Shown: positions 2,068 to 38,762, counted from the first letter of the stretch. The stretch: DNA of 64,000 bases from an uncultured bacterium (GCA_937900255.1 CALCDZ010000004.1:20857-84856), one strand, 5' to 3'. The notes: generated from the letters alone by a model not told the origin. Numbers and translations are program-made.

Positions 2068-3111
2068 ATGAAGTTTCCGCCCATCTTTTCCGACCTTCCC
2101 AAACGCCCGTTGACGTTCGAGATCGCGGCAGGGGTCATTTTGGCGCTGCTGTTCTGGCGAGGATCATCCGAGGGACGCCTGCCGAAAGCGGTCGGGAACG
2201 GCACGTTCGACCGCTGGCGTGCCATCATCGTGATGCGCGCCGACGTAGTGTTCGACCCGCCCGCATCCTATTGGGTGGAGGGGCTGCTTTTGGGTGCCGA
2301 TCAGGGTTTTTCGTCGAAGTGGCGGGCGGATTTCCGGCGCACCGGGACCAGCCATCTGACCGCCGTGTCCGGCTACAACGTCGGCATGGTGCTCTCCGTC
2401 ACGCTGGCCGTGCTCGCATCGGCACCCTTCGGACGGCATGCGCGGGTAGGCATCGCCATGGGCTGCGTGGCGGCGTTCGTGCTGCTGACAGGCAGTCCCG
2501 GTTCGGTCCTTCGGGCCGCCGTGATGATCGGCGCGGTCGAAGCGGCGCGACTCTTCGGGCGCCCGATCAAACCGATCCGGGCGCTGCTCATCGCGGCGCT
2601 GTGCATCGGCGCCTGTTCGCCGCGAAGTCTGGCGCAGGACCGCGGCTTCCAGCTGTCCGTGCTGGCTTCCTTCGGCCTCGTCACGCTGGCGCCGCCGATG
2701 ACGGACTTCTTCCGGTTCCTGCCCAAGACGGTCGCGGCATGGGCCGGACAGACCTTGGCTGCCACGATCGCCACCGCGCCGCTCATCGCGCTCATGTCCG
2801 GCACGTATTCCTTGGTGGCCCTGCCCGCCAACATCGCCGTCGCGGCCTTCATCCCGGCGCTCATGGGCCTCGGCGCGCTCATCCTCGCCGCGAGCCTCGT
2901 TTCCTTGCCGCTGTCCTTGGCCGTAGCCGGTCTCGCCAAAGGCTTCTTCATGCTACCGTTGGTCCTGATCCGCGCCATGGCTTCTTGGCCAGCGGCAGCC
3001 GTGACCGGTCCGGAGGCGTTCGCCGTGCTGATCGGTGTCGAACTGGCGGCGCTCTTCTTCGTCCTCCGCTGGCGCCGCCGCGCGTCCGAACGCCTCGGTC
3101 TCCATGCGTGA
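2068..3111 (+). CDS. comEC: ComEC/Rec2-family competence membrane protein (membrane 'competence' domain only)
   Basis: Polytopic membrane protein carrying a ComEC-type motif (...TSHLTAVSGYNVGMV...). Ends with TGA overlapping the ATG of the next ORF (ATGCGTGA). Confidence 0.65.
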   Translation: MKFPPIFSDLPKRPLTFEIAAGVILALLFWRGSSEGRLPKAVGNGTFDRWRAIIVMRADVVFDPPASYWVEGLLLGADQGFSSKWRADFRRTGTSHLTAVSGYNVGMVLSVTLAVLASAPFGRHARVGIAMGCVAAFVLLTGSPGSVLRAAVMIGAVEAARLFGRPIKPIRALLIAALCIGACSPRSLAQDRGFQLSVLASFGLVTLAPPMTDFFRFLPKTVAAWAGQTLAATIATAPLIALMSGTYSLVALPANIAVAAFIPALMGLGALILAASLVSLPLSLAVAGLAKGFFMLPLVLIRAMASWPAAAVTGPEAFAVLIGVELAALFFVLRWRRRASERLGLHA

Positions 3112-4390: not shown

Positions 4391-4737
4391 GTCTTGTCGG
4401 TCCTGTCGGAGAGCGGTATGCTGAAGGCGGCCCCGCGTCAGGGAGAACATGTTTTGGGACAATCATTTGGCAGAGTGGCCCGAGAGACTTAGCCGCTTTG
4501 GCGGCCAGGCCGAGGGCTTCAGCGGTAAGAGCAAGGGAAGGCGCCTTCCGGGCATCCCGTAAAGGGTTCTCGGAAGCCCGTCCTCCCAAGCCGGTCGTGC
4601 GGCGCAAGCCGTCCGGCAGCCCACATGACACTTCGCCAAATCATGCCTTCCGCCGCGGGGCCTTGTCGTTTCACGAAAAAAAAGCACGCGCCTGGACGGA
4701 AGGGGGGGGAAGGTTCCTCTCCGCCCGGGCGCGTTTT

Positions 4738-27248: not shown

Positions 27249-28009
27249 CCACCTTCCACGCCCGCGGCATCATCCTGCGCCGGGAGATCTGGCGCGATGC
27301 CGCCCGGCTCTACACCATCTATACCCGCGAGTCGGGCAAGCTTCTGGCGGTCGGGCGCGGCACGCGCAAGCTGCTCTCGAAGCTCGGCGCGCATCTCGAA
27401 CCCTACACCCTGGTCGACCTGCACCTGGCGCGCGGCCGCAAGTCGGAGACGATCTGCGGCGCCGTCACGCTGCGGGCTTCGGAACCGCTGGCGTCGGACG
27501 ACGAACGCTATCTGGCCGCCTCGTTCACGGCCGAAGCGGTCGATCATTTCGTGAAGACGGGCGAGCGCGACGACGACCTTTGGAACCTGATCGAAAGTTG
27601 GTACGCGGACCTTTCCGTGCTGCCCGAGGACCGCATCGGCGCCCGTCTCTCCGTCTTCGTCTGGCGCTTCATGGCGCACCTCGGATACCACCCCAAGCTG
27701 GACGAGTGCCTCGAATGCGGGCGTGCCTTGCGTTATGAAGCCGTGCGCTTCCTGCCGGCGCGCGGCGCGGCCTGCTGCCGCCTTTGCCCGCTCGACGAAC
27801 GATCCTTGGCCGGCTCCGTCTCCCTTGCGGCCTCCGAACGGGATGGGATCGCCGAATGCCTCGAAGGGAACCCCATGCCGCTTCCTTCTCCCGCCGTCCG
27901 TACCGCCGCCTTGGCGCTGCTCGAAGCCCACCTCGACCGCCCGCTCACCAGCCTGCCGTTCGTCCAGGCGTGCGTGGCGGATGTTTCGCGTGCTATACTT
28001 GAGGCATGA
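27245..28009 (+). CDS. recO: DNA repair protein RecO
   Basis: N-terminal OB fold (MTTFHARGIILRRE...), C-terminal Zn finger CLECGRAL...CCRLC. Confidence 0.75.
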   Translation: MTTFHARGIILRREIWRDAARLYTIYTRESGKLLAVGRGTRKLLSKLGAHLEPYTLVDLHLARGRKSETICGAVTLRASEPLASDDERYLAASFTAEAVDHFVKTGERDDDLWNLIESWYADLSVLPEDRIGARLSVFVWRFMAHLGYHPKLDECLECGRALRYEAVRFLPARGAACCRLCPLDERSLAGSVSLAASERDGIAECLEGNPMPLPSPAVRTAALALLEAHLDRPLTSLPFVQACVADVSRAILEA

Positions 28010-28704
28010 ATTCTATGGAACCGATCCATCAAAAACCTGACTTTTCGCGCCGGCCGGTGGCCGGAATGATCGTCATCCTGTTCGCGGCGCTGTTCATTGG
28101 CGGGTGGTTATATGTCGATGCCGTCCGAAACGAACTTGAATCAAAGGTCGAAGCCGCAGATGCGCGGACAGCGAGCGTCAAATCTGCGCTTACCGAGTTC
28201 GCGCGCCAACAGACTGTTCAGACACTTGCGGTCTCCTCAAAGGATCAGGATGAAAAGCCTTTTCCGCTTCCCGGAACGCCATTTGCCATCTTCCTTCCCA
28301 AGGACTTAGAAGCGGATGCTACAGGTCCTGACAGCGCAAGATTCACAAGAGGTGGTGAAGTCGTGATGTCGTTCAGTTGCGACACCCGGGAAGTTCAAGC
28401 GGCACGGAAGGGAAAGACGCTTGGTCCGGCCACGGTGATTCCGTTTTCTGAAATTGGCTGCGAGGGCGAAGGGTCAGACTGTGACGGTTTTCTAGAAAGG
28501 ATTACGGCGGGATCTGCAGCACTCTATAGCTTTGATAAGGATATCCGTCCGCGTTCTGCGATTGTCATGCAGGCAAAAGGAAGTGCACGCGCCTGCGCGC
28601 TGACGGAACGCATCACGAAATATGCCGTCGACCAGAATCTCGGCCCACATTTTTCGAACCTTTTTAACCTCCATTACGCAAGCAATTTCGCCAGCAGTAA
28701 TTGA
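28006..28704 (+). CDS. hypothetical membrane-anchored or secreted protein (lower G+C than surroundings)
   Basis: ATGA overlap with the recO stop; N-terminal TM/signal (VAGMIVILFAALFIGGWLYV); several Cys; no recognised domain; visibly more A+T than its neighbours. Confidence 0.5.
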   Translation: MNSMEPIHQKPDFSRRPVAGMIVILFAALFIGGWLYVDAVRNELESKVEAADARTASVKSALTEFARQQTVQTLAVSSKDQDEKPFPLPGTPFAIFLPKDLEADATGPDSARFTRGGEVVMSFSCDTREVQAARKGKTLGPATVIPFSEIGCEGEGSDCDGFLERITAGSAALYSFDKDIRPRSAIVMQAKGSARACALTERITKYAVDQNLGPHFSNLFNLHYASNFASSN

Positions 28705-28706
28705 GG

Positions 28707-28738
28707 GAAGGCCCGCCTTCCGGCGGGTCTTGTTTTTC
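28707..28738 (+). terminator. rho-independent terminator
   Basis: AAGGCCCGCC-ttcc-GGCGGGTCTT, a 10-bp stem with one G.U, followed by GTTTTTCC. Confidence 0.65.
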
Positions 28739-28767
28739 CGCAAGTTCCGGGCTAAGGTAAGCCTGCT

Positions 28768-30066
28768 ATGGAATACACCCTCGTCAAAGATATCGCCGCC
28801 AAGGCGGGCCAGGACGTCCTCTTGAAAGGCTGGTGCTACAACTTCCGCTCGTCCGGTTCGATCTTCTTCCTGCAGCTGCGCGACGGCTCCGGCCGCATCC
28901 AGGCCGTCGTCTCCAAGAAGGAGATCGGCGAAGACGCCTGGAACGCCTGCCAGTCGCTCTCGATCGAAGCGTCGGTCGAGGTCGAAGGCGCGGTGAAGGC
29001 CGAACCGCGTTCGGCCTCCGGTTTCGAGATCCAGGCCAGATCCGTGCGCGTCGTCGCCCTGCCGTCCCAGGAGTTCCCGATCGGCAAGAAGGAGCACGGC
29101 GTCGAGTTCCTGATGGACATGCGGCACCTCTGGCTGCGCAGCTCGCGCCAGGAGGCGATCCTGCGCGTCCGCGACGAGATCGAGTTCGCCATGCGCGAAT
29201 TCATGCGCGAGCGGGGATTCACCCTGACCGATTCGCCGATCTTCACGCCGAACGCCGCCGAGAGCACCTCGGAGCTGTTCGAAGTGAAATATTTCGACGA
29301 CAAGGCCTACCTCTCCCAGTCCGGACAGCTGTACCTTGAAGCCACTTCCAGCGCGCTCGGCAAGAGCTACTGCTTCGGTCCGACCTTCCGCTCCGAAAAA
29401 TCCAAGACGCGCCGCCACCTGACGGAGTTCTGGATGCTGGAGGCCGAAGCGTCCTTCATGGACTATGTCCAGAACATGCAGCTGCAGGAGGACCTGGTCG
29501 TCCATGTGGTGAAGAAAGTGCTGGCCAACCGCCGCGAGGACTTGAAGACGCTGGAGCGCGACGTCGCGCCGCTCGAACAGGTCGCGGAGGGCGGTTTCCC
29601 GCGCATCACTCACGCCGAAGCGGTCGCCAAGCTCCGCGAGCTCGGCAGCGACATCAAGGAAGGGGACGACCTCGGCGCCGACGACGAGACGCTCCTCACC
29701 CAGCAATACGACAAGCCGATCTTCGTCCACCACTATCCGGTCGAGATCAAGGCCTTCTACATGAAGCCAGACCCTCAGGACCCCAGCCGCGTCCTGAACG
29801 ACGACCTGCTCGCCCCCGAAGGCTATGGCGAGATCATCGGCGGTTCCCAGCGCATCGACGATCTGGCGCTGCTCGAACAGCGCATCAAGGATCACGGCCT
29901 GCCGATGGAAGCCTTCGAATGGTATCTCGACATCCGCCGCTACGGCTCCGTCCCGCACTCCGGCTTCGGCATCGGCCTCGAACGCACCGTCGCCTGGATC
30001 TGCAAGCTTCCGCACGTCCGCGAGACCATCCCGTTCGCGCGGCTGTTGAACAGGTTGAAGCCTTAG
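28768..30066 (+). CDS. asnS: asparaginyl-tRNA synthetase
   Basis: 432 aa class-II aaRS; FRSEKSKTRRHLTEFWMLEAE is the AsnRS motif-2 region; N-terminal OB anticodon-binding domain. Confidence 0.9.
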   Translation: MEYTLVKDIAAKAGQDVLLKGWCYNFRSSGSIFFLQLRDGSGRIQAVVSKKEIGEDAWNACQSLSIEASVEVEGAVKAEPRSASGFEIQARSVRVVALPSQEFPIGKKEHGVEFLMDMRHLWLRSSRQEAILRVRDEIEFAMREFMRERGFTLTDSPIFTPNAAESTSELFEVKYFDDKAYLSQSGQLYLEATSSALGKSYCFGPTFRSEKSKTRRHLTEFWMLEAEASFMDYVQNMQLQEDLVVHVVKKVLANRREDLKTLERDVAPLEQVAEGGFPRITHAEAVAKLRELGSDIKEGDDLGADDETLLTQQYDKPIFVHHYPVEIKAFYMKPDPQDPSRVLNDDLLAPEGYGEIIGGSQRIDDLALLEQRIKDHGLPMEAFEWYLDIRRYGSVPHSGFGIGLERTVAWICKLPHVRETIPFARLLNRLKP

Positions 30067-30072
30067 CACGCA

Positions 30073-30921
30073 ATGCCTCTTATTGATTCGTTGGTTTCAA
30101 GTGCATCCAATACCGTTGCGTATTTTGATGACCATCAAGGTTTTCTGACGGTTGTTGGGTGGTTTGCTGCAGCCGTTCTCGGTTTGTTGTTTGGTTTGAG
30201 ACAGCAAAAACAAGCCCTTAGGGATCAAGCTAGATTGGAGATATATAAAGATATCAATCAAGACAAACACCAATTGATTGAGGCCTATATCGAATTGTCG
30301 ACAACGGTTTCTAAATTTGGATTGAGTACAACCTTCATAAATTTGAAGGGTAGAAAGAATGGCGTGACTACGGATAAAACTGAGCTAGATATATGGCAAG
30401 AGTACAGCAACCGATCGCTCGAGAGTATCAGTAAGTTTGTCGATGCCTATAGAAAGTTTTGGGGATCTGTCGATTCATGGATAGGAATGATGCGGGACCT
30501 GCAGAAAGCTAAAGATTTATACTTTAAGAAGTTAACGGATCTGAGCAGTAGTCTTTGGGTACTACAGAGAGAATTTTCTGATCTGGGGACTGAATTAATT
30601 GTCGACAGTGCGAGTTTTTATTCAAAGGAGAAATCTCTAGAAGAAGAAATTCAAACCAAGTACAACGAGATCTCAGAAACCATTGGCTTTACGGATGATT
30701 TTATGATGCTTATTCATAACGAATTGATTGGCGGTGTGGTCGGTTTTACAAAACGTCCAAGAGAGGACGTGTATGTAAGCGCACCCGTCACAATAAGCGT
30801 ATTGACAAATAAAGGTTTCAAGAAAGTTACTATGAAACCTGTCACTAAGAAATCCCCCTGGTATAGAGAGGTGAACTTGGCTGGAATCCCCGACGACCAA
30901 GAAAATAAGCGTGGGGTCTGA
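30073..30921 (+). CDS. hypothetical membrane-anchored protein encoded on a strongly A+T-rich, gene-sized island
   Basis: Starts 6 bp after the asnS stop. One N-terminal TM helix (VVGWFAAAVLGLLFGL), the rest predicted helical and charged. Codon usage is A/T-rich, unlike every neighbouring gene. Confidence 0.55.
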   Translation: MPLIDSLVSSASNTVAYFDDHQGFLTVVGWFAAAVLGLLFGLRQQKQALRDQARLEIYKDINQDKHQLIEAYIELSTTVSKFGLSTTFINLKGRKNGVTTDKTELDIWQEYSNRSLESISKFVDAYRKFWGSVDSWIGMMRDLQKAKDLYFKKLTDLSSSLWVLQREFSDLGTELIVDSASFYSKEKSLEEEIQTKYNEISETIGFTDDFMMLIHNELIGGVVGFTKRPREDVYVSAPVTISVLTNKGFKKVTMKPVTKKSPWYREVNLAGIPDDQENKRGV

Positions 30922-30932
30922 ACAGGCAGGCC

Positions 30933-31748
30933 CTAGCCCAACCGGAATCCCCGCATCGAGATGCTGCCGTAGACGACGCCTTCGTTGAAGAACGAGGGCG
31001 TTTCGTCTTTTTCTTGGAGGCCGAGGGCGTAGAGCATCGGCCAGTAATGGTCGGGCGTGGGGATGGAGAGCTGGGCGGCGTGGCCGAGGTTCGCGTAGTC
31101 GATGAGGGCGTCGTGGTCGCCATCGGCGATGAGTTTGTGGGAGACGGCGTCGAACTCGGCGGCCCAATCGAACGGGCGGTCCGCGGAGGGGTCGATCATG
31201 CCGAGGTTGTGCACGATGTTGCCGCTGCCCATGATCAGCACGCCTTTGCGGCGCAGGGGAGCGAGCGCCCGCCCGAGGTCGTAGTGGAAGCGCGACGGCT
31301 TGGTATAGTCGAGGCTCAGCTGGAAGGTCGGGACGTCGGCGTCCGGGTAAAGGCGTTTCAACACCGACCAGGTGCCGTGGTCGAGGCCCCACTCGGTGTC
31401 GAGCCCGATCGGGAAACCTTCCGCCGCCCGACGTGCCTCTTCAGCCGCGGCCGGTGCGCCCGGACAGGGGTAGCGCTGGTCGTAGAGCTCCTGAGGGAAG
31501 CCGTAGAAATCGTGGATGGTGCGCGGTTCGGCCGAGACGTTGACCATCGTGCCTTTCACGAACCAGTGCGCGGAAATCGAAAGGACGGCGCGCGGCTTGG
31601 GCAGCTCCCGTCCGATTTCCGTCCACGTCCGCGAGAACGCGTTGTCCGTGATGGCATTCATCGGATCGCCATGCCCGACGAACAGGACCGGCATCCGTTC
31701 GGTGGCAGGGAACGCTCCGGCGGCCGACTGGAATTCCTTGATGGTCAT
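30933..31748 (-). CDS. ygiD: extradiol ring-cleavage dioxygenase, class III (LigB / 4,5-DOPA dioxygenase YgiD family)
   Basis: Colinear with E. coli YgiD: MPVLFVGHGDPMN, SAHWF, TIHDFYGFPQELY, SGNIVHNL, PTPDHYWPMLY. Start chosen at MTIKEF (272 aa). Confidence 0.8.
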   Translation of the reverse strand: MTIKEFQSAAGAFPATERMPVLFVGHGDPMNAITDNAFSRTWTEIGRELPKPRAVLSISAHWFVKGTMVNVSAEPRTIHDFYGFPQELYDQRYPCPGAPAAAEEARRAAEGFPIGLDTEWGLDHGTWSVLKRLYPDADVPTFQLSLDYTKPSRFHYDLGRALAPLRRKGVLIMGSGNIVHNLGMIDPSADRPFDWAAEFDAVSHKLIADGDHDALIDYANLGHAAQLSIPTPDHYWPMLYALGLQEKDETPSFFNEGVVYGSISMRGFRLG

Positions 31749-31872
31749 ATGAGAGCAGTATACCCGTATCCGACTTCGGTCAGAAGTACCTAAAAAATGG
31801 CTTATATAAGCTATTTTTATCGAATCCGTGGCGAGTTGAACATCCGGCAGCCGCATGTTAGAGTGCCTTCAT

Positions 31873-33282
31873 ATGGAATCCCAGAAACGTATTTTTGTTT
31901 TGGAAACGCTCCAGCATATCGGCGAGGAAGTCGTGCTCAAAGGGTGGGTGCATGTGCGCCGCAACATGGGCAAGATGATCTTCATCGAGCTGCGCGACCG
32001 CACCGGCATCATCCAGGTCGTCTTCCACCCGGGCAATCCGGACGCGCTCGCCGCGGCCGCCGATCTCCGTTCCGAATACGTCGTGGCTATCCGCGGCAAG
32101 GTCAACAAGCGGCCGGAGAAGCAGGTCATGGCCGAACAGCCGACGGGCACGGTCGAGTTCGAAGCGCTCGAACTGACGGTGCTGAACGCCGCCAAGACGC
32201 CCCCCTTCGAACTCACGGCCGATACGCGCGGCGTCGATGAGGAATTGCGGTTGAAGTACCGCTATCTCGACTTGCGGTCCGAACGCATGCGCAAGAACAT
32301 CGAGCTGCGTCACAAGGTCACCAAGTTCTTCCGCGATTTCCTGACGGAAAAGAATTTCTTCGAGATCGAGACGCCCATCCTGACCAAGGGCACGCCGGAA
32401 GGCTCGCGCGAATACCTGGTGCCGTCGCGCCTGCACGCCGGCAAGTTCTACGTGCTGCCGCAGTCGCCCCAGCAGTTCAAGCAGCTGCTCATGGTCGCCG
32501 GCATGGAGCGCTACTTCCAGGTGGCGCGCTGCTTCCGCGACGAGGACCAGCGCGGCGACCGCCAGCCGGAATTCACCCAGCTCGATATGGAGATGTCGTT
32601 CATCGAGGAAGAGGATATCATCTCGCTCATCGAGGAGATGCTCATCAAGCTGGTGGAGACCGTGTCGCCGGAGAAGAAGATCCTCCAGAAGCCCTTCCCG
32701 CGCCTGTCCTACAAGGAGGCGATGGAGAAGTACGGCAACGACAAGCCGGACCTGCGCGTCAACAAGGACGACCCGAACGAGCTGGCTTTCTGCTGGGTCG
32801 TCGATTTCCCGCTCTTCGAGAAATCCGAGTCCGAAGGCCGTCTCGTTTCCGCCCATCACCCTTTCACCGCCCCTCGCGACGAGCATAAGGCGATGCTCGA
32901 CACCGACCCGGCCAGCGTCATCGCCAAGGCGTATGACATTGTGCTGAACGGCTACGAGATCGGCGGCGGCTCCATCCGTATCCACGACCGCGAGACCCAG
33001 AAGAAGATCTTCCAGATCCTGGGCGCCACCGACGAGGAGATCCAGTCGCGCTTCGGCCACATGCTGGAAGCCTTCGAGTACGGCGCGCCTCCGCATGGCG
33101 GCTGCGCTCCGGGCATCGACCGCATCGTCATGCTCCTGGCGGGGGAACCGAACATCCGCGAGGTCATCACCTTCCCCAAGACCGGCGACGCGCGCGACCC
33201 GATGATGGGCGCTCCCGCCCCCATGCCGGAAGCCCAATTGCAGGAAGCGCACATCCTGGCCTTGGCCCCGAAAATGAAGTAA
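31873..33282 (+). CDS. aspS: aspartyl-tRNA synthetase, bacterial-type core without the GAD insertion domain
   Basis: N-terminal OB domain; [38 protein letters not shown]. Only ~470 aa versus ~590 for GAD-containing enzymes. Confidence 0.9.
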
Positions 33283-37393: not shown

Positions 37394-37469
37394 CGCGGGG
37401 TAGAGCAGTTGGCAGCTCGGCGGGCCCATAACCCGCAGGTCGCGGGTTCGAGTCCCGCCCCCGCAACCA
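37394..37469 (+). tRNA. initiator tRNA-Met (anticodon CAU)
   Basis: C1:A72 mismatch; anticodon stem GCGGG/CCCGC with three G-C pairs; loop CCCATAA; T-arm GCGGG-TTCGAGT-CCCGC; encoded CCA. Confidence 0.9.
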
Positions 37470-38685: not shown

Positions 38686-38762
38686 GGCGGGATAGCTCAG
38701 TTGGTTAGAGCGTGGGACTCATAAGCCCAAGGTCGAGGGTTCAACTCCCTCTCCCGCTACCA
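38686..38762 (+). tRNA. tRNA with CAU anticodon (elongator Met or lysidine-modified Ile2)
   Basis: GGCGGGA/TCCCGCT acceptor (G1.U72); D-loop AGTTGGTTA; anticodon loop CTCATAA; T-arm GAGGG-TTCAACT-CCCTC; encoded CCA. Confidence 0.8.

Follow-up and report, generated by a model that had tools for sequence, protein, structure and literature searches.

The window, the 64-kb stretch of DNA analysed in this work, carries upstream of asnS a ribosomal-protein operon followed by secY, adk, map, ruvX and recO, and further downstream aspS, a gene for a YbaK-like editing protein and scpA/B. Between asnS and a convergent gene for a LigB-family extradiol dioxygenase (here termed ligB) lies an island whose single open reading frame (ORF) encodes a membrane-anchored protein of 282 aa (Table 1). 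The window asnS showed 85-93% identity to asnS of related Patescibacteria, and because the nearest asnS proteins carry the labels Patescibacteria, Magasanikbacteria or Uhrbacteria, the window was assigned to the Candidate Phyla Radiation (CPR), for which its G+C content is unusually high.

Table 1. Features of the asnS-ligB locus (window coordinates)
Feature	Position	Strand	Remarks
asnS (asparagine-tRNA ligase), native	28768-30066	+	Pfam tRNA-synt_2, tRNA_anti-codon
Left direct-repeat copy, functional last 30 nt of asnS (GCGCGGCTGTTGAACAGGTTGAAGCCTTAG)	30037-30066	+	Aligns with 30909-30936
Inserted island	30067-30932		866 nt; no counterpart in L087 and L100; G+C 41% versus 63%
Gene for 282-aa membrane-anchored protein, predicted four-helix bundle, unnamed family	30073-30921	+	Homology search, family alignment (A1), AF2 model
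Single transmembrane helix, codons 24-42, near-invariant G29-W30	30142-30198	+	Hydropathy maximum
Most conserved stretch, codons 208-248 (DDFMxLxHNEL, R230, L244-T245-x-x-G248)	30694-30816	+	Near-invariant columns in alignments A1 and A2
Right direct-repeat copy, decayed asnS 3' end (GCGTGGGGTCTGAACAGGCAGGCCCTAG)	30909-30936	+	Ends at the ligB stop
ligB (LigB-family extradiol dioxygenase), convergent, native	30933-31856	-	Pfam LigB; same position in L087 and L100
Intrinsic-terminator-like hairpin and U-tract in the ligB 3' end	30971-31015	+	Pattern scan, RNA fold

The ORF starts 6 nt past the asnS stop (30066) and ends 11 nt short of the convergent ligB stop, as had been noted when the locus was first described. 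The original prediction that a gene-sized A+T-rich island is abruptly set between asnS and the dioxygenase gene was checked by sliding-window G+C and GC3 calculations. The G+C content of the ORF was 40.9%, versus 63.1% for the 64-kb window, and in sliding 849-nt windows (sd 3.1%) the ORF was the unique minimum within the 64 kb. Its GC3 value was 0.43, compared with 0.83 ± 0.07 for the 66 other ORFs (z = -5.5); the z value of the overall G+C content was -8.0. These data confirmed the low G+C content of the ORF, far beyond chance. The island gene is compositionally foreign, and its horizontal acquisition is established. In agreement with the prediction that neither an integrase nor a tRNA target flanks the island, the ORF listing contained no second gene within it, no tRNA gene was found near it (the nearest is at 37394), and no homologues of the kinds of recombinase, restriction-modification (R-M) and TnpB proteins encoded beside other members of the family were found in the 64-kb window. 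This nearest gene is one of two for tRNA-Met (CAT), at 37394-37469 and 38686-38762, separated by 1.2 kb.

A pattern scan of positions 28500-32100 revealed no sigma-70-like promoter. The hairpin in the 3' end of ligB had a folding energy of -23.8 kcal/mol (z = -3.8), which none of 200 shuffled sequences equalled in stability, and its sequence is conserved in two relatives that lack the island, L087 and L100, where it would terminate asnS. The absence of a promoter-like site in the scanned region, the 6-nt gap and the downstream terminator suggest that the island gene would belong to the asnS transcript, in line with the predicted read-through from asnS. This transcript likely ends at the hairpin, and we infer that the island gene has been placed between asnS and the likely terminator of asnS itself. 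The accompanying claim that there is no terminator holds for the island, but not for its surroundings, since the strong hairpin and U-tract follow in ligB. A further terminator-like G+C-rich hairpin with a T-run is located at 28708-28731 (+), between a gene for a 232-aa protein and asnS, and therefore asnS may start its own transcript within the next 36 nt.

Two other details of the locus were recorded. The asnS stop (TAG) and the island ATG share a reading frame, two codons apart (30064-30075), so that read-through of the stop would yield a fusion of AsnRS with the membrane protein; with a one-in-three chance of occurring, the shared frame is probably coincidental. The G+C content also dips to 47-50% at 31700-31900, between the divergent ligB and aspS genes, where the listed ORFs overlap (ligB, 307 aa versus 271-285 aa in relatives; aspS, 475 versus 467-468); the true starts of both genes are probably further in, and this stretch probably represents a shared promoter region.

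Insertion at the 3' end of asnS

The claim that the gene had been seamlessly inserted behind asnS was checked by its presence or absence in related genomes. In the two empty-site relatives, L087 and L100, whose asnS is about 89% identical to that of the window, the ORF was absent and the gene order was the same, the stops of asnS and ligB lying 4 nt apart in L087 and overlapping as CTAG in L100. When L087 and L100 were aligned to the window by blastn, the alignments ended at 30062 and 30067 and picked up again at 30935 and 30930, respectively. The empty sites, together with these alignment breaks, indicate that the 866 nt between 30067 and 30932 were added, and the insertion at the asnS-ligB junction is precise and clean.

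Flanking repeats had been reported as absent from the locus, but the far end of the island was found to carry a second, imperfect copy of the final 30 nt of asnS in direct orientation. The two copies share 22 matches in 30 columns plus one 2-nt gap, and the empirical p value was about 0.0015 (of the 30-nt windows across the 64 kb, only 0.15% scored equally well against the asnS end); the likeness may reach about 50 nt, the extra length adding little score. The right copy occupies the place of the asnS end in the empty sites and has CTG and CCC like the relatives, while the functional left copy in asnS has TTG and CCT. The right copy also supplies the last four codons and the TGA stop of the ORF, whose tail (codons 258-282) has a G+C content of 50%, between those of island and host, lies beyond the conserved end of the family and is predicted to be disordered. 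A repeat of this kind resembles an attachment site and fits the pattern left when DNA integrates at a gene's 3' end and that end is regenerated; because it is short and degenerate, we consider it suggestive. An exact 10-nt repeat, GGAATCCCCG, at 30883 and 30944 was also considered and was attributed to chance, about one exact 10-mer repeat being expected within 1.4 kb. At three loci of other family members (L102, behind secA; L103, behind a Mur ligase gene; and L101), no significant duplication of the 3' end of the upstream gene was detected.

The arrangement behind asnS has several traits in common with genomic islands of the tyrosine-integrase type that occupy the 3' end of a conserved gene, namely, its foreign composition, the empty site that relatives have, and the duplication of the target-gene end, by which the gene is left intact. 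It differs from them in that the island measures only 866 nt, holds a single gene without an integrase and is flanked by a degenerate repeat.

Two explanations that would do without an insertion were considered. That the gene is native and ancestral, with losses in the relatives instead of a gain in the lineage of the window, is disfavoured and in our judgement very improbable: the asnS-aspS interval is different in every relative examined, so losses do occur, but the G+C content of the gene is 22 points under that of the host and its GC3 value is similarly displaced, the homologues nearest to it belong to A+T-rich genomes and reach an identity of only about 30%, the duplicated asnS end would be the mark of an insertion event, and the compact empty site is present in two separate relatives. 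An assembly or binning chimera deserves still less credence. The source is a metagenome of low coverage (about 6x, in one assembly), and two other assemblies of the same population (contigs L002 and L001) end at 31276 and 31313, in ligB, 340-380 nt beyond the island, where the breaks could be due to that low coverage or to local strain variation; on the other hand, the sequence across both junctions is 100% identical in three assemblies (NCBI, with a 275-kb contig, ENA and Logan), synteny picks up again exactly after one gene, and the apparent target duplication is present.

The protein family, its predicted structure and its gene neighbourhoods

The protein had been described as an orphan, and in a word-indexed protein search it retrieved itself alone, with one more protein when a family profile was used. 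This description did not stand, since an exhaustive HMMER (phmmer) search of 1.84 billion cluster representatives yielded 50 relatives with E<1e-3, 29 of them with E<1e-10, of 235-300 aa and about 30% identity. The matches were near full-length, those of the 29 representatives at E<1e-10 covering residues about 24-257 of 282, and almost all of the members are unnamed metagenome singletons. Thus, what looked like an orphan belongs to a rare but defined family with a structural model, about 50 sequence clusters in size and without a name in any database; it is this protein family that is new, the horizontal acquisition of a small gene being itself a known phenomenon.

No convincing family match was obtained in Pfam, NCBIfam, PADLOC or PHROGs, the 42 aligned members having been used for the first three. 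The window protein had no match at E<=1 among the PADLOC-DB v2 HMMs, the 42 members gave scattered weak PADLOC matches (the best, to gop, with E = 9e-4 in 3 of 42), and the sole PHROG match of the window protein had E = 0.052. When the window protein and the protein P0128 were used as queries in tblastn searches, no match was obtained in 50,697 phage genomes or in 72,556 plasmids, and two pattern scans of IMG/VR did not find the family. A sequence-profile search of the PDB returned coiled-coil noise alone.

The conserved features of the family in alignment A1 are a G-W pair in the membrane helix, Y58, W108, W136, an MPxL turn, the DDFMxLxHNEL motif, R230 and a C-terminal hairpin with LTxxG. 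In the secondary structure of the model, the most conserved stretch comprises the final part of the last bundle helix together with the beta-hairpin. The window protein is identical at 21 of 30 family-conserved positions and deviates, among others, by P141R, L150Y, W182F and W185K, and because several conserved positions differ, the window copy may be impaired. At the positions conserved in at least 93% of the members, G29, W30, Y58, W136, D209, R230, L244, T245 and G248 are kept, L150Y being the exception.

AlphaFold (AF2) gave an unusable model from the single sequence (pLDDT 40), whereas the run with the family alignment reached a pLDDT of 89.8 and a pTM of 0.80. In this model, a short N-terminal helix precedes a membrane helix (residues 24-42) that runs into a long up-and-down four-helix bundle, followed by a beta-hairpin at 239-254. 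Both the hydropathy profile and the model agree with the originally predicted order of one N-terminal transmembrane helix and a helical domain; most family members likewise have one transmembrane helix, and some have two or three. Among the 42 members, a mean of 0.7 Lys+Arg residues was counted on the N-side of the membrane helix versus 3.9 on the C-side, so that, by the positive-inside rule, the topology would be N-out/C-in with a cytoplasmic bundle. From the helix order of the model, the polar residues Y58, W136, D209, H215, N216 and R230 should cluster at the membrane-proximal end of the bundle. Fold searches returned generic four-helix bundles alone, and because the fold matches are generic, the predicted structure gives no mechanistic lead. 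An HEPN-type Rx4-6H motif composed of H215 and R230 was discarded, since their order and spacing in alignment A1 are wrong. The four-helix-bundle (4HB) sensors of chemoreceptors (Tar/Tsr) and histidine kinases were compared as well. The Pfam 4HB_MCP match is absent from the family of the window protein, and the chemoreceptor bundle is periplasmic and lies between two membrane helices, in contrast to the single membrane helix and predicted cytoplasmic bundle of the family.

Ten family contexts outside the window were recovered (L089, L090-92, L093, L094, L095, L097, L099, L101, L102 and L103), and a plain count placed six of them in mobile-element or defence neighbourhoods. In L097, the family gene lies within a type I R-M operon with the order hsdM, NYN, two small ORFs, family gene, hsdS, ORF, Fic and hsdR. 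In L095, it is located directly behind a gene for an 814-aa HSDR_N/N6_Mtase/Methylase_S fusion and adjoins TnpB, and in L090-92 the order is MazG-like, a helicase matching the PADLOC models AbiO/Nhi/PDC-S41, RadC, ORF, family gene and Fic. Large serine recombinases are encoded in the remaining three, with the orders small ORFs, family gene, Prim-Pol/AAA_25 and recombinase (L093); family gene, ORF, recombinase, N6_N4 methylase, HTH and 807-aa protein (L099); and ParB-methylase, SNase, family gene and recombinase (L101). No defence or mobility genes were found in the other four contexts, two of which are unremarkable (L089 and L094), the other two having the family gene between secA and dxs (L102) or between a Mur ligase gene and, further on, tpiA (L103). 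Comparison of these loci shows the family as stand-alone mobile cargo of R-M operons, defence islands and serine-recombinase elements. No partner gene was conserved across nine family loci, and no conjugation (T4SS) genes were present in any family context. In 11 of 12 loci, the A+T content of the family gene exceeded that of the surrounding host locus, the difference being 1-9 points in the ten contexts outside the window, and from this offset a donor of about 45-50% G+C would be expected for the window copy.

In L102 (at 2022-2048) and L103 (at 4462-4485), the solitary family gene has the same orientation as the essential gene in front of it (secA and the Mur ligase gene, respectively) and lies 23-26 nt past it, an arrangement that echoes that of the island gene behind asnS. 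Between the penicillin-binding protein gene and the Mur ligase gene of L103 there is, moreover, a bAvd/23S_rRNA_IVP-type gene (2719-3108); bAvd-type proteins are accessory proteins of diversity-generating retroelements.

Origin and possible function of the island gene

We lean, with slightly better than even confidence, towards the view that the island represents what is left of mobile DNA, a single gene taken up horizontally at the asnS 3' end, and that its protein is likely to exclude phages or mobile DNA. An element would have integrated at the 3' end of asnS in the high-G+C CPR genome, duplicating the last 30 nt of the gene, and the rest of the element, any integrase included, would have been deleted afterwards, the donor having had roughly 45-50% G+C. 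The island gene would then be read as part of the asnS transcript up to the ligB hairpin, and the protein, at the inner face of the cytoplasmic membrane, would most likely exclude phages or incoming mobile DNA in the manner of a single-gene abortive-infection or superinfection-exclusion protein, with the conserved polar cluster as its putative working site. By gene neighbourhood, a defence or exclusion function is plausible through association only, because six of the ten contexts contain R-M, defence or mobile-element genes. More tentatively, and as a proposal that we regard as doubtful, the family may constitute an unrecognised stand-alone, membrane-tethered defence protein without a partner, captured even by ultra-small CPR episymbionts and riding a tRNA-synthetase transcript.

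The original interpretation had placed the gene among defence, abortive-infection or addiction modules, or alternatively among phage morons. Its defence part fits the same six contexts, but no PADLOC match and no partner gene were found. A type II toxin-antitoxin system was rejected, given a single gene in the window and no neighbour conserved across the family loci, and the addiction reading fails because the partner gene is absent. The moron reading loses weight, since the family was not detected in the viral collections. Overall, the foreign, precisely placed and membrane-anchored gene of that interpretation was borne out, while the orphan status, the lack of repeats and the addiction module were not.

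Two other explanations of the acquired gene have to be weighed. It is rather unlikely, to our mind, that the protein is mobile-element cargo without a defence role, serving element maintenance or transfer (as in entry exclusion), membrane stress or the envelope, or the interface between episymbiont and host, the link with R-M genes then reflecting shared variable regions. Such a role would agree with the lack of matches to known defence models, with the four contexts without defence genes, with the mostly membrane or secreted proteins held by the variable slots nearby in the lineage, and with a generic bundle fold that sensors and scaffolds also use. It is at odds with the copy within a type I R-M operon with NYN and Fic and with those adjoining the R-M fusion and the Nhi/AbiO-like helicase, which are classic places for defence genes, and, as regards transfer, with the absence of T4SS genes from all family contexts. 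Quite unlikely is a gene without function that an integrated, since decayed element left behind and that is passively transcribed behind asnS, as might be argued from the solitary gene without an integrase, the decayed right-hand repeat, the predicted disordered C-terminal tail fused to duplicated asnS sequence and the several changed conserved positions. The reading frame is nevertheless intact over all 282 codons, the positions conserved in at least 93% of the members are kept with the one exception, and a compact genome in which asnS and ligB otherwise overlap would not be expected to retain 850 bases without function.

By architecture, AbiC and AbiP of lactococci come nearest among the described proteins; they are single-gene, membrane-anchored systems with an extramembrane domain without an assignable fold (PMC13064643). 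Like the family of the window protein, AbiC and AbiP are products of stand-alone genes and combine an N-terminal membrane helix or helices with one extramembrane domain; they differ from it in that no AbiC PADLOC match was obtained among the 42 family members at E<=0.1 and that the tblastn search of the 72,556 plasmids gave no match. Because no sequence link was found, the family may work like AbiC/AbiP and is not taken as a member of it.

Small membrane-anchored proteins that act without a partner and are constitutively produced are also known from prophages as superinfection-exclusion proteins, i.e. the Sie2009 type, T4 Imm and P22 SieA. The window protein would resemble them as a small membrane-anchored product of a foreign gene, located in the cytoplasmic membrane and without a partner; in contrast to those prophage genes, the family turned up neither in phage genomes nor in IMG/VR, and the bulk of its protein is predicted to be cytoplasmic. 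PrrC and RloC are examples of accessory genes for defence that lie within type I R-M loci, a situation resembled by the family member located between hsdM and hsdS together with NYN and Fic genes. Unlike PrrC and RloC, the family has neither an HEPN Rx4-6H motif nor an ATPase domain, and the window copy is near no R-M gene.

In Patescibacteria, horizontal transfer has been documented, defence genes included (PMC12455944), so that the acquisition event is in itself unsurprising. The locus also presents the uptake of foreign DNA by a streamlined CPR genome at base-pair resolution, with its slot, its putative target duplication, its empty site and its expression apparently borrowed from an essential gene. 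Given its neighbourhoods, with R-M operons, an Nhi/AbiO-like helicase, Fic and serine-recombinase elements, the family is a concrete candidate for a function in defence or exclusion that would be new and carried out by a single gene. If this function is true, the gene would be an addition to the short list of Patescibacteria defence genes; if not, it would be an ordinary small horizontally transferred gene.

Accessory genes around asnS

The asnS-aspS interval was also occupied by other genes in relatives. In L085 (7407-7901, minus strand), it holds genes for 88-aa and 73-aa proteins with the look of a toxin of the HigB/RelE kind and an antitoxin of the ParD/RHH kind, their Pfam matches falling below the curated cut-off in either case, plus a 197-aa protein; if the pair is real, an addiction module fills the slot that in the window holds the island. 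In L083 (7312-11079), the nearest of the relatives with a long contig, whose asnS is 92% identical to that of the window, the interval encodes a 122-aa protein, an M23 peptidase, a 205-aa protein and a 443-aa beta-propeller-like protein with RTX repeats, and lacks ligB, which indicates that ligB is not fixed behind asnS. A 412-aa membrane-anchored protein is encoded in the interval of L004, and in the distant relatives L003 and L004 the genes behind asnS are unrelated to that of the window protein. The gene orders compared show the asnS-aspS interval to be a recurrent slot for accessory genes in the lineage of the window. The recO-asnS interval varies too, with 0-3 genes among relatives, and both variable intervals taken together show that two accessory-gene slots flank asnS in this lineage.

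In the window, the recO-asnS interval encodes a membrane-anchored protein of 232 aa (28006-28704, +), whose gene has the second-lowest composition among the ORFs (G+C 53%, GC3 0.54). Its first 50 residues or so, comprising the membrane helix and the motif WLYVDxVxNELExK, are common to the same-slot genes of relatives, and its C-terminal part is unrelated to them; these genes would seem to form a native family in which the outer domain changes fast. A weak PHROG match of this protein to an Rz-like spanin (E = 0.0055) was also recorded.
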